NCBI GenBank assembly: GCA_048213135.1
Contig: PS015098.1
Coordinates: forward strand, 58,967-114,487
Length of the DNA stretch: 55,521 nt
Source: Reclinomonas americana ATCC 50394
Lineage: Eukaryota
Direction: 5' to 3'
A model generated the notes under the pieces. The model ran no database searches, was not told where the DNA came from, and saw only the letters and a list, made by a program, of their open reading frames with translations. This document shows positions 1 to 54,951 of this stretch, one piece after another. The translations under genes and the position numbers were made by a program. Position 1 is the first letter of the stretch. The number at the start of each line of letters is the position of its first letter.

Positions 1-473
1 GGAGGAGGGAGGAGGGAGGAGGGAGGAGGGGAGAGAGGGAGGAGGGAAGGAGGGGAAGGAGGGGAAGGAGGGAAGATGAGGAGAAGGAGGAGAGAGAGAG
101 AGAGCGAGACAGAGGAAGAACAAGAACTCAAGGCGAGTGAGGCAGTGAGAGCAGGAGAGGGAAAGCACCAGTGAACAGGGGAACGCAATCACCACAGATC
201 AGCAGCGGTGGTGAGTGAGCATGCAGTGAAGAGCAGTCAAAGGGCAATCACAGTCGACAATCAACAAAGATACAGGTCGCATTCATGTTTGCTCCCTCTC
301 CCTCTCCATCCCCTCTCTCCCACCCTTCTCCCTCTCTCAGTGCACTCACTCGCCCACATGGAAGACAATGACAGGCAATCACAAAACACGCGTCACCTCT
401 TGCTCACTCACTCTCTCTCCCCACTCTCCCTCCCTCCACCCTCTCCCTCCTCCTCCTCCTCCTCACACTCAAC

Positions 474-629
474 TGGGCGTCCAGTGGGCGTGCGGAGAGT
501 GTGCGGGTTGTCCACGGGTGGCGACATGGCCACATCATAAACTCCTGCTGCGTGCCCCTCAAATCTCCCCAGCTCCTTGGCATGCAACGGAGGTGCGAGC
601 TCGTACTCTTCTTCCTCCTCCGCCTGCAT
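474..629 (-). CDS. WD40-repeat protein, putative first exon (gene continues toward the window edge)
   Basis: ATG at 629; MQAEEEEEYELAPPLHAKELGRFEGHAAGVYDVAMSP resembles a WD40 repeat start (GH...VYDVAMSP). Putative donor GTTGAGT at 473. Downstream exons could not be traced. Confidence 0.45.
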
Positions 630-683
630 CACCCCCGCTCACAAGAAAAGAAAACAACAAGAAACAAAATGGAATTATTCATT

Positions 684-52089: not shown

Positions 52090-52970
52090 GTTGGTTCTTC
52101 TTGTTTTTGTGTACCAGATGGTGGACTGTTCTTGCTCATTCCTGCGTAGCGAGTGCTAAANNNNNNNNNNNNNNNNNNNNGGGGGAAGGATGAGAGAGGA
52201 GAAGGAGAAGGAGAAGGAGAGGGAGAGGGAGAGGGAGAGGGAGAGGAGATGGGGATGGGGATGGGGATGGGGAGGGAGAGGAGAGGAGGAGAAGGGAAGA
52301 GAAGAGAAGAAGAGAAGAGAGGAGAGAGAAGCGGGGAGGGAGAGGTGAAAGAAGAGAATGGCAGCGCGGAGAGATGAGAAAGACAGAGAAGTGCAGGGTG
52401 GAGAGGAGACGAAGAAGACGGGAGAGAGTGGACAGAGAGCGAAGAAGAAAAAGAGAGAGGAGAGAACATAAGAGTGAGAAACGAGAACCAGAGAGGAGAC
52501 ACACAAGAAAAGAGATGATGGGGAAGAGAGGGAGCGCGGGAGAGGAGAGAAAGAGAAACGAGAATCACAGTGTAGACAAAAAGAAAAGAGAGAGAGAGAG
52601 AGAGATAGAGAGCGAGGGGGAGAAAAGAAGAGAGAGTGAAAATGACAAAGAGAGTGGAGATAGAAGAAGAAGTAGAAGAAGAGAGAAAAGAGGAGAGACG
52701 GGGAGAAAATGACAGTGTGATAGAGAAAGAATGAGAAATGAGAACCAGAGGGGAGACAGGAAAGAAAGTGAGCGAGAGAGAGAGAGAAAAGTCAGGGAGA
52801 AAAGACAATGCGAGAGAAGAGAAGGACAAGAATGAGAAGTGCAGGGTGGAACCGAAGAAGAAGACTGGAGACGGGAGAGGGAAGACAGAGAAAGAGAGAA
52901 GAGAACAAGAAGAATGCTGCACAAAGGGGCACAAGATATGATTCATAAGAAGAAATGCCACGAAACAAAC

Positions 52971-54951
52971 CTGTATACTTGGCTGACGGAGGCGGATGGT
53001 GCAGTCCACGTGCACCGGCGGCGCCACCGCCTTCAGCTGAGACCTTTTCAGCGTCAGCCTGTCCAGCAGAACCGCAAGATTCAGGAAACACACAACACAG
53101 CATTTGCGACAACGCCCGCGAACCTCCATCTGCTCGAGGTGTGTCATGAGTCGACGCACGGGCCGCATGGCAGCCTCCTTGCACACGAGAACAATGTCGG
53201 AGCCAGAGTAGCCTTCGGTCTGGCGTGCCAATCGATCGTGGTCCACTCCGACGGTTCGCTCCGGAGGCAAGCTGCTGCGAATGATGCTCAGGCGGCCCTC
53301 ATGGTTGGGCAAGTCGACCAATATCTGCAGTCAATCGTGAGATCCTAATTCTCCTTGCACGCAACGCATGCGCGCGCACGCACTCTCTTCTCCAAACGCC
53401 GCAGCATGGCCATGTCGAGGTCCCACGGCAAATTGCTGGCGGCCAGCACAAACACCTGGTCGCCCGCGGTCCGTGCCAGACCATCCATCTGAATGAGCAA
53501 CTCGGTCTTCATGCGACGCGAGCCCTCGTGCTCCGAACCACCGCCATCACGCTGCGCCATAATGGAGTCGAGCTCGTCGAGGAAAATGGTGGACGGGGCG
53601 TGGTAGCGGGCCAGCTCGAACAGCACGCGCACCAGTTTTTCGCTGTCTCCGCGCCACTTGGACACAATGGTGGAGGCCGAAATGTTGAAAAAGGTGGTGC
53701 GGCATTCGGTGGCCACCGCCTTGGCCAGCATGGTCTTGCCGGTGCCGGGTGGGCCGTACAACAGTACGCCTTTCCACGGTTGCAAAATGCCGGTGAAGAG
53801 TCTGCGAATAGGGGGCAAAGGAGGATGAACATTTGCTTCAGTTACGCAGTGGTAGCAGGCACACGACGATACGCAACTGTGGGTATTTGAGTGGCATGAC
53901 GACGGCTTCCTTCAACAGTTGCTTGGCCTGCTCGAGACCGGCAATGTCACGCCACCTCACGTTGGGATTCTCGTTGATAATGTCGCGAGCGACAATGCAT
54001 GCCAATTCACGCAGTTCCGGGTTTCCACCAAAGTCGCCCAGCGGCTTGAGCATGCGCATCTCGAAATGGTCGGCCGCCGCTGCCACCTCGTCGGGTGGTG
54101 GTCGGGCGGTTTTCTTGCCCTGCAGAGCAACACGAGTGCGTGAGTGTGCGTTCCATGTCTTTGTGATGCGAGGGGAGTGCCACCTTGACAGCGTCGGCTG
54201 AAACGGCGACACCCTCGAGGCTCAGTGAGTCGCTCGCGGGAGCACTCGCGCTGCCGTCGCCATTCGCACGGCTGCTGCTGGCTTCCCCGTTGCCACTGCC
54301 ACCAGCAGAACCGCTACCGCCACCACCTACTGTGGGAATTCGTGGAAGCTTGGTGTTGCTTCTGCGGGAATGACAACGTGGCGATAAGCATGCAGCTCAG
54401 ATTCCACGCATCCGCATGGTGATCGACACAAACCCCTGCCGCGCAATGCCTGGCTTGCCGCCGGCGCCACCAGCAGCAGCTGCTGCTGCCGCGCGACTGG
54501 CACCATCTGTGGACGCCGCCCGAGGTCGTGCGCCTTGGCGACCGCGCAGATCTGTTGACGGCGGTGGCATGCCTTGTTTGTTGCACACAGAGAGGTGAGT
54601 GCGCGTGAGCGGTGGGTTTTCGGTTGTCTGTCGTCACTCACCTTCACCGTCGGAGCGCCGAATGAGCTTGGGCTTCCGGCCAAAGCGCATTTCGTAAAAC
54701 TGTTCATACTCCTGCATGTGTTACACAAAGAAATGTGAGAGAATGCACGATACCGATCGTCAAGGAGACCTCACGCGCACCATGACAATGGAATACAGGT
54801 CAATCTGAAAGAAGACAGGCAAGGGCAGTGAGTGCGGCGAAAGAGAATGAGTGAGGAGATGGGCGTGCTTGCGCGTACATTGTCGGCGGTCGTGTTCTTG
54901 CTGAGCGATACACCGCTCTCGATGGACAGCTGCTCGACGGTGTCCAGGTAG
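52971..54951 (-). CDS. KATNAL2: Katanin p60 subunit A-like 2 (LisH + AAA ATPase), partial at both ends
   Basis: LisH-region YLDTVEQL...[27 protein letters not shown]; Walker A GPPGTGKT; Walker [46 protein letters not shown]. Confidence 0.93.

Follow-up and report, generated by a model that had tools for sequence, protein, structure and literature searches.

The window analysed here is a stretch of 55,521 nucleotides of Reclinomonas americana ATCC 50394 (contig PS015098.1, positions 58,967 to 114,487 of the forward strand). It is nuclear DNA with 55% G+C and eleven runs of N, it is gene-dense, and its genes are rich in introns of about 60-75 nt. An earlier note on this DNA had claimed that many of these introns start with the ordinary 5' splice site consensus moved one nucleotide downstream by an extra T, so that the conserved G stands at +6 instead of +5, and it listed 34 such sites. 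Here we analyse these GTT..G+6 donors, called the GTT class, with the ordinary donors as comparison class (comparison sets of n=22 and n=72, respectively). All counts given below refer to this single 55-kb window and its roughly ten genes. Pfam matches on exon open reading frames (ORFs) identify the following genes:

0.7-2.9 kb, minus strand: class V aminotransferase
5.6-7.1 kb, plus strand: leucine-rich repeat (LRR) protein
7.4-10.1 kb, minus strand: protein kinase
12.1-16.1 kb, minus strand: WD40 protein
18.0-18.7 kb, minus strand: LRR protein
21.2-28.3 kb, minus strand: four-domain voltage-gated cation channel
32.0-34.4 kb, minus strand: acid lipase
37.1-46.3 kb, plus strand: large gene with PAS and class III cyclase domains
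49.6-52.2 kb, plus strand: ULK4-like HEAT protein
53.0-55.0 kb, minus strand: KATNAL2

Introns were traced with a dynamic-programming gene finder that uses codon usage, GT and AG ends, a score for acceptor and branch site and a prior on intron length, and that is blind to the donor from +3 onward. A simpler model with codon usage and GT..AG ends only had produced many spurious long introns, and the acceptor, branch and length terms were then added. The donor-agnostic model contains 146 introns in ten well-scoring gene spans, 132 of them of 40-130 nt. Among these short introns the commonest donor hexamer is GTTGCG (20/132), followed by GTGCGT (14/132), whereas only 24 of the 2655 unchosen GTs in the same spans read GTTGCG (odds ratio 19.6, Fisher p 5e-16). 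The third base is nearly fixed: the chosen GTNGCG donors have T in 20 cases, C in one and never A or G. Unchosen GTs read GTGGCG (43) and GTCGCG (27) more often than GTTGCG (24).

The proposal that this is a mainstream class, comprising a fifth to a quarter of introns, is borne out by three models. The share is 22/132 (17%) in the agnostic model, 6/30 (20%) among introns backed by homology (7/31 when the donor at 33364 is included) and 33/141 (23%) in a donor-informed model, i.e. the gene finder rerun with both donor profiles, which makes this last value partly circular. The 33 GTT-type introns among the 141 of the donor-informed model comprise 27 GTTGCG (one of GTTGCGA type among them), 3 GTTTCG, 1 GTTGTG and 1 GTTCTG. 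All 34 listed positions do carry GTT(G/T)(C/A/T)G on the strand given for them (26 GTTGCG, 4 GTTTCG, 3 GTTGAGT(G), and 1 each GTTGAGA and GTTGTG). GTTGAG and GTTGTG, listed as members, each occur in 0/132 agnostic-model donors and have no independent support, and these sub-words should therefore be dropped; GTTTCG was chosen once in 132. The class is nearly a single word, GTTGCG(T/C), plus 1 to 3 GTTTCGT. It is narrower than noted, and does not span the full range of ordinary words with an extra T.

As real donors, the listed sites fared unevenly. Nineteen of the 34 were chosen exactly by the agnostic model (2064, 7847, 18766, 21403, 21773, 23553, 24879, 25391, 34307, 48127, 48998, 37871, 43126, 44019, 44425, 44772, 50410, 50748 and 51146). 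Three more (53877, 33602 and 33364) were found by spliced alignment of homologues, the agnostic model having taken an in-frame neighbour, which brings those with independent support to 22/34. At five ambiguous sites (6245, 44161, 50160, 51324 and 10070) the agnostic model goes to a nearby GT and the donor-informed model to the listed position. The other seven are without support: 473, 4694, 4986 and 35288, all outside coding models, and 10191, 19718 and 32028. The list also missed at least one good member (45685) and several candidates. The three GTTGAGTG sites among those listed (473, 4986 and 35288) lie at the edge of GA-rich low-complexity tracts, outside coding models; long GA/GGA-rich and CA/TG microsatellite-like tracts stand beside genes around these positions.

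The introns of the class are as follows, with a slash between exon and intron:

2001..2064, minus strand: gct/GTTGCGTT, 64 nt, class V aminotransferase; agnostic model, one of three in-frame donors at its acceptor
7787..7847, minus strand: gca/GTTGCGTC, 61 nt, protein kinase, GYMA/PEQL; agnostic model, Pfam and STK24, sole ORF-compatible donor
18702..18766, minus strand: cga/GTTGCGCG, 65 nt, LRR gene; agnostic model, one of two ORF-compatible donors
21337..21403, minus strand: caa/GTTGCGTG, 67 nt, C-terminal part of the channel gene; agnostic model
21707..21773, minus strand: gca/GTTGCGCA, 67 nt, channel gene; 10/12 homologues and agnostic model
23492..23553, minus strand: cta/GTTGCGCA, 62 nt, channel gene; agnostic model, 5/12 homologues (a plurality only), third by score in rescoring
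24818..24879, minus strand: att/GTTGCGTC, 62 nt, channel gene, GN/YILLNLF; agnostic model, 10/12 homologues, sole ORF-compatible donor
25328..25391, minus strand: cag/GTTGCGTT, 64 nt, channel gene, G at -1; agnostic model, 11/12 homologues, rescoring margin 362
33015..33364, minus strand: act/GTTGCGTG, acid lipase; 11/16 homologues for the donor only (several acceptors), 350 nt in the donor-informed model
33530..33602, minus strand: aac/GTTGCGCG, 73 nt, acid lipase; 12/16 homologues, with 0 for the agnostic alternative 33608
34246..34307, minus strand: cgg/GTTGCGTG, 62 nt, acid lipase, LQHG/VTDAS; 16/16 homologues and agnostic model
37871..37936, plus strand: gga/GTTGCGAT, 66 nt; agnostic model
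40253..40334, plus strand: candidate ctca/GTTGCGCG, 82 nt, unlisted; agnostic model only, replaced in the donor-informed model
41723..41790, plus strand: aat/GTTGCGTG, 68 nt, unlisted; agnostic and donor-informed models
43126..43197, plus strand: cca/GTTGCGAT, 72 nt; agnostic model
44019..44085, plus strand: ttc/GTTGCGTT, 67 nt, within the PAS domain; agnostic model, Pfam PAS runs four residues past the donor and is not decisive
44425..44493, plus strand: gca/GTTGCGCG, 69 nt; agnostic model
44772..44839, plus strand: gac/GTTGCGCT, 68 nt; agnostic model, sole ORF-compatible donor
45685..45760, plus strand: aga/GTTGCGTG, 76 nt, cyclase domain, unlisted; Pfam and donor-informed model, the agnostic model took in-frame 45673
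48056..48127, minus strand: cac/GTTTCGTC, 72 nt; agnostic model, the sole GTTTCG that it took
48936..48998, minus strand: gca/GTTGCGTG, 63 nt; agnostic model
50410..50477, plus strand: gca/GTTGCGGG, 68 nt, ULK4-like HEAT gene; agnostic model, one of four in-frame candidates
50748..50816, plus strand: ctc/GTTGCGTT, 69 nt, ULK4-like HEAT gene; agnostic model, Pfam HEAT_ULK4 spans the intron as an insertion of ~20 residues
51146..51216, plus strand: gac/GTTGCGTG, 71 nt, ULK4-like HEAT gene; agnostic model, Pfam HEAT_ULK4 approximate
53802..53877, minus strand: aca/GTTGCGTA, 76 nt, KATNAL2; 20/20 homologues, +375 over the agnostic 53862 summed over 25 homologues
6245..6306, plus strand: ambiguous, aat/GTTGCGTC, 62 nt; one of three in-frame donors, agnostic 6227, donor-informed 6245
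44161..44228, plus strand: ambiguous, gca/GTTGCGTG, 68 nt; agnostic 44168 with another acceptor, donor-informed 44161
50160..50231, plus strand: ambiguous, atc/GTTTCGTG, 72 nt; agnostic in-frame 50175 (57 nt), donor-informed 50160
51324..51387, plus strand: ambiguous, act/GTTTCGTC, 64 nt; agnostic in-frame 51342 (46 nt), donor-informed 51324
9992..10070, minus strand: ambiguous, gga/GTTGTGTC, 79 nt, the sole GTTGTG in a gene model; agnostic 10067, in the donor-informed model only
37171..37249, plus strand: further candidate GTTGCGTG, unlisted; donor-informed model only
41931..42012, plus strand: further candidate GTTGCGCC, unlisted; donor-informed model only
42984..43050, plus strand: further candidate GTTGCGTC, unlisted; donor-informed model only

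Two donor-blind homology tests were made on the KATNAL2, four-domain voltage-gated cation channel and acid lipase families: a rescoring of all in-frame GT..AG alternatives, and our own protein-to-genome spliced aligner with a flat intron penalty. The nearest channel proteins are those of jakobids (~35% identity), a rhizarian and Rigifila, the channel homologues being only ~30-35% identical, and the nearest KATNAL2 proteins are those of Goniomonas, a glaucophyte and chytrids. We call an intron homology-backed when at least half of the homologues support it. There are 30 of these: 21 have G at +5, six are GTT..G+6 and three are others. Homologues, Pfam or PDB fix eight of the listed junctions (7847, 25391, 24879, 21773, 53877, 34307, 33602 and, for the donor, 33364), and Pfam coordinates place one unlisted junction, 45685. 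The proposal that GTT..G+6 donors belong to real introns cut before GT is supported. As a check on bias, the aligner was also applied to 80 unrelated metagenomic KATNAL2 loci, where it gave 95 mostly spurious introns, with no GTTGCG and 2/95 T+3/G+6. These 80 loci came from a metagenome scan with the KATNAL2 exon for close relatives; none was above 88%, in an exon that is highly conserved, and most lack real introns.

At 7847 position 165 of the Pfam Pkinase match falls on the final codon before the intron and position 166 on the first codon after it, the STK24 chain 3zhp_C is matched to residue 192 and then, given a one-residue insertion, from 193, and the APE motif requires a cut before GT. 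At 24879 the rescoring margin over the next alternative is 639 with 12 homologues; the split codon T/AT gives Y, and the aligned residue is Y in 10/12 and F in 2/12 homologues. Pfam Ion_trans runs 110/110 across the split codon at 25391. Position 95 of Guanylate_cyc ends at nt 45684 and position 96 lies, as inferred from the coordinates, at the acceptor 45761. Of the cuts said earlier to be fixed by conserved motifs, kinase MA-PE and channel GN-Y-ILLNLF require the cut before GT, lipase QH-G (16/16) and the katanin site 53877 (20/20) are backed by homologues, and the Pfam match to PAS does not decide. At 51146 HEAT_ULK4 reaches approximately 150-151 at the donor and restarts at approximately 146-148 after the acceptor. 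At 51324 the match ends one residue past the site, and the rival intron of 46 nt is shorter than the homology-backed minimum of 58. No homologues were found for the ULK4-like HEAT exon (the gene of 50160, 50410, 50748, 51146 and 51324), and homology gives no decision at 21403, which lies in a poorly conserved region.

The GTT donors might also be read as cut one base later at both ends (TT...AGN). At 53877, 25391 and 34307 this gives the same protein. At 7847 it turns M-A-P-E into M-A-A-E, and at 24879 GN-Y-ILLNLF into GN-C-ILLNLF; only the cut before GT keeps these residues, and the intron therefore begins at the G of GTT. In length, branch site and acceptor the GTT introns look like the ordinary ones. 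Their median length is 67 nt (70 nt for ordinary introns), a CTSAY branch motif is found in 19/22 (58/72), the distance from the branch A to the 3' end is 19 nt (21 nt), and C at acceptor position -3, i.e. CAG, occurs in 21/22 (68/72). Judged from sequence, the GTTGCG(T/C) sites truly begin introns of the ordinary U2 GT-AG type, cut before GT.

Introns of the U12 type carry an RTATCCTT donor and a rigid TCCTTAAC-like branch site. Like the GTT class, they are a minority with its own nearly invariant donor word beside the major class. Unlike them, the GTT introns share branch site, length and acceptor with the major class. The U12 type was rejected for these introns: the donors read GTTGCG, the branch motifs do not differ from those of major-class introns, and the U12 words are absent. 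According to passages of PMC4856993, U12 introns make up 0.36% of the human total. A family of introners or other repeated mobile introns was rejected as well: an all-against-all blastn of the 132 introns returned nine short low-complexity matches, none of them between two GTT introns.

What distinguishes the class is the position of its consensus relative to the cut. Within the intron, positions +4..+8 of these donors have a log-likelihood of -90.1 under the ordinary +3..+7 profile against -276.6 under the ordinary +4..+8 profile, in agreement with the proposed shift by +1; G+6 is present in 22/22 by definition and T+7 in 13/22. The exon side moves as well, a point absent from the earlier note. 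G at -1 occurs in 3/22 GTT donors against 50/72 ordinary ones (p 4e-6). The composition at -1 of the GTT class (n=22; A 11, C 5, G 3, T 3) is close to that of ordinary donors at -2 (n=72; A 26, C 22, G 8, T 16), and A at -1 is found in 11/22 against 7/72. The deficit of G persists within phase 0 (1/8 GTT, 27/36 ordinary) and phase 1 (0/6 and 19/24); an effect of codon position is therefore rejected. It is also seen in the homology-backed subset (2/9 GTT, 16/21 ordinary, p 0.013). A likelihood comparison prefers the shifted exon alignment by 19.8 nats, and position -1 supplies almost the whole of this. Seen as one continuous helix, CAG/GUGCGU and CA/GUUGCGU are the same nine-base signal in which one G has become U and the cut falls one base earlier.

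These data suggest that in the GTT class the whole signal that pairs with U1 has, on balance probably, moved by one base with respect to the cut, and that the class is a second frequent type of donor. The shifted U1 helix itself, the mechanism that the earlier note had named, we hold with moderate confidence; we infer both that the partner is U1 and that one and the same U1 reads the two classes. Intron G+1 would then lie opposite C9 of U1, normally the place of the exon G-1. U+2 would face C8, U+3 would take the place of U+2 opposite A7, and GCGU at +4..+7 would pair in lieu of GCGU at +3..+6. U1 would thus mark the site in a register shifted by +1, and the U6/U5/Prp8 centre would afterwards select the exact phosphate, there being only one GU to choose. 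This centre would have to tolerate an extra base between that GU and the G pairing with the U6 ACAGA box. Once U1 has left, the ACAGA box would likewise have to pair one base later or accept a bulge.

Several observations count against this reading. The counts come, as said, from one window. Exon position -2 adds nothing to the shifted model (-0.7 nats). The GTT class is also stricter than a mere displacement would have it, with G+4 in 20/22 and C+5 in 21/22 where ordinary donors have G+3 in 42/72 and C+4 in 25/72. In addition, predicted pairing is poor. With RNAduplex and a textbook U1 11-mer, whose 5' end, ACUUACCUG, may differ from that of the organism's own U1, the median is -1.5 kcal/mol for 31 GTT donors and -6.9 for 81 ordinary ones. 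The minimum-energy duplexes of the 31 GTT donors are all weak with this U1: 13 are purely shifted against one purely canonical, a ratio that speaks for the shift, and in 17/31 the best duplex is in neither register. A canonical U1 in shifted register should prefer GUUAAGU or GUUGAGU to make up for the mismatch at C8, and GTTGAG occurs in 0/132. Finally, C+5, which would face a pseudouridine of textbook U1, is explained neither by psi5 of U1 nor by the U6 ACAGAGA box. Either nearest-neighbour energies miss what U1C, LUC7-type proteins or U6 contribute, or the partner RNA has CGC. The weak pairing with textbook U1 and the invariant C+5 hint at an adapted partner RNA. We mention, as a tentative possibility, that the two registers are used side by side by means of a changed U1 (a 5' end tuned to GCG, or a paralogue matching CA/GUUGCGU) together with a catalytic centre, i.e. 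U6 ACAGA box and Prp8, that would accept the extra base.

Among the alternatives, the likeliest is that the GTT class is recognised by an adapted small nuclear RNA (snRNA) instead of a textbook U1 that tolerates mismatches. The U1 5' end might carry, e.g., CGC opposite GCG, or a paralogue (e.g. with A for C at position 8) might be fully complementary to CA/GUUGCGU. This would account for the strictness of the GTT word at positions whose ordinary counterparts are loose, for the near-zero pairing predicted with textbook U1 and for the disuse of the human-type shifted words, and it predicts the same exon-side shift as does tolerance of an extra base. To our knowledge, the 5' end of U1 is almost invariant among eukaryotes. 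Moreover, A, T and C are all accepted at +4 of ordinary donors, contrary to what a strict G at position 5 of U1 would lead one to expect. GTGCGT donors occur in Mamiellophyceae without an altered U1 being reported in the relevant passages of PMC2483917 and PMC3879977, the former raising a change in snRNA as a possibility only. We regard an adapted snRNA as rather unlikely.

A bulged U is less probable still and, we think, improbable. The exon end and GU would pair with U1 as usual, and one U at +2/+3 would bulge out, a register listed for human sites in sections of PMC4856993. The intron side alone cannot separate bulge from shift, and two donors with G-1 (25391, cag/, and 34307, cgg/) have best textbook-U1 duplexes that keep G+1 on C8 (-5.9 and -5.7 kcal/mol). 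The exon side does separate them: because a bulge keeps C9 paired with exon -1, G-1 should be at least as frequent as in ordinary donors, whereas it is depleted, and the unshifted exon model loses by the 19.8 nats given above. Displacement on the exon side thus makes a shifted U1 helix the better reading than a bulge.

Recognition without U1, by a protein or by a U6/U5-first pathway reading GTTGCG as a word, would suit an almost invariant word that pairs weakly with textbook U1. Yet, the word amounts to the ordinary consensus with one T added, the preference on the exon side shifts with it as for one continuous helix, and branch site and acceptor are as in ordinary introns, so that we find it very improbable. 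That the class is an artefact of mis-traced introns, chance words or one mobile intron family, as the seven unsupported and five ambiguous sites and the GA-rich low-complexity DNA adjoining the GTTGAG sites might suggest, is scarcely credible and for the core set already contradicted by the enrichment (p 5e-16) in the agnostic model, by the eight listed junctions fixed by homology, by the control run of the aligner (0/95 GTTGCG, 2/95 T+3/G+6) and by the blastn comparison of the 132 introns, whose nine short matches include no GTT-GTT pair.

Roca and Krainer (2009) reportedly described shifted-register U1 pairing at rare human 5' splice sites. Shifted and bulged registers have so far been known only as such rare exceptions in human. 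In the human shifted register, as set out in parts of PMC4856993 and PMC11162779, G+1 lies opposite C9 and the +2 base opposite C8, and passages of the latter argue for a U6 register shifted by one base at one human donor, in STAT3. The human shifted sites resemble the GTT class in that the consensus comes one base late after GU, with U1 paired one position further downstream and the cut still made at GU. Their exon ends lack the usual G-1 too, as in the test oligonucleotide ACA/GUCAAGUAUA given in Table 2 of PMC4856993. Unlike these rare sites, the GTT class amounts to 17-23% of introns in the window, its core is GCGU and not AAGU, and its +3 is always U. The human bulge +3 (or +2) register (Roca 2012, Tan 2016; as listed in sections of PMC4856993) looks the same as the GTT class within the intron. 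In that register exon -1 stays paired with C9, whereas the GTT class is depleted of G-1 (3/22). Bulge and asymmetric-loop registers together account for 1.5% (validated) to 5.1% (projected) of 201,541 human sites, according to figures in the same source.

The ordinary class also has a known counterpart. The donor consensus of Mamiellophyceae (Ostreococcus, Micromonas) is AG/GTGCGT(G), according to passages of PMC2483917 and PMC3879977, and these algae share with the ordinary class of the window the unusual GC-rich core (with 14/132, GTGCGT leads the ordinary hexamers) and branch sites of CTGAC type. Unlike the window, their genomes are described there as intron-poor outside special regions, and the passages on donors mention no GTT class. 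Their BOC1 introns, AT-rich and without a branch motif according to sections of PMC3879977, are unlike the introns of the window. The genes of the window have no close match to Micromonas or Ostreococcus proteins; the gene set fits a flagellated protist or a zoosporic organism. Andalucia is intron-poor according to passages of PMC7050145, whereas the window is intron-rich. The belief that no genome with such a two-register pattern had been described finds agreement in a text search of one open-access library, which returned neither this pattern nor a donor class of GTTGCG type; supplementary logos lay outside its scope, and the genome paper of the organism may mention the pattern.

As usually taught, a single U1 register and G+5 determine where the 5' cut falls. 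If about a fifth of the introns of the genome use the shifted form, U1 helix and cut site would be separable routinely and not exceptionally, and hundreds to thousands of natural substrates would be at hand to learn how U6, U5 and Prp8 find a GU with a late G. If the snRNAs are altered, this would be a case of co-evolution between U1 and splice sites. Were the adapted-U1 account true, the genome would hold a natural 'suppressor U1' experiment at genome scale, with a second donor class of the major spliceosome. There is also a practical side for gene prediction: the agnostic model, ignorant of the GTT class, misplaced three junctions later fixed by homologues (53877, 33602 and 33364) and the Pfam-inferred 45685.

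The gene models and searches gave some further observations. A long 'gene' at 12583-19607 (plus strand) in the agnostic model is spurious, being antisense to real minus-strand genes; ORF length alone misleads in this window because long antisense open frames are common in GC-rich DNA. Rfam returned no family in the window at gathering scores. At E up to 5 there was no spliceosomal snRNA, the matches being weak look-alikes of miRNA, lncRNA and scaRNA only. One of these is a sub-threshold match at 11044-11216 (plus strand) to MIR2646, a plant miRNA precursor (36.5 bits where the gathering score is 245; E 2.7e-4), with further weak miRNA look-alikes nearby at 10709-10824; the MIR2646-like match is probably a hairpin-forming repeat between runs of N.

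Some introns depart from both donor classes. In the channel gene, the intron at 24983-25044 (minus strand, 62 nt) has a non-consensus donor, CAG/GTGCTTGG, and a TATAG acceptor, and is supported by 11/12 homologues. In the acid lipase gene, the introns at 34000-34061 and 33693-33758 (both minus strand) have donors AG/GTTATTGAT and AG/GTTATTAAT, without G at +5 or +6, backed by 15/16 and 14/16 homologues, respectively; these may represent a third, weak-looking donor form. Further along the same gene, at about 32900-33364 (minus strand), homologues split between acceptors that give 320, 324, 444 and 470 nt, and CGTGAGCGAG/cgtgct is a recurring segment, which suggests a tandem duplication or an assembly problem within the gene.

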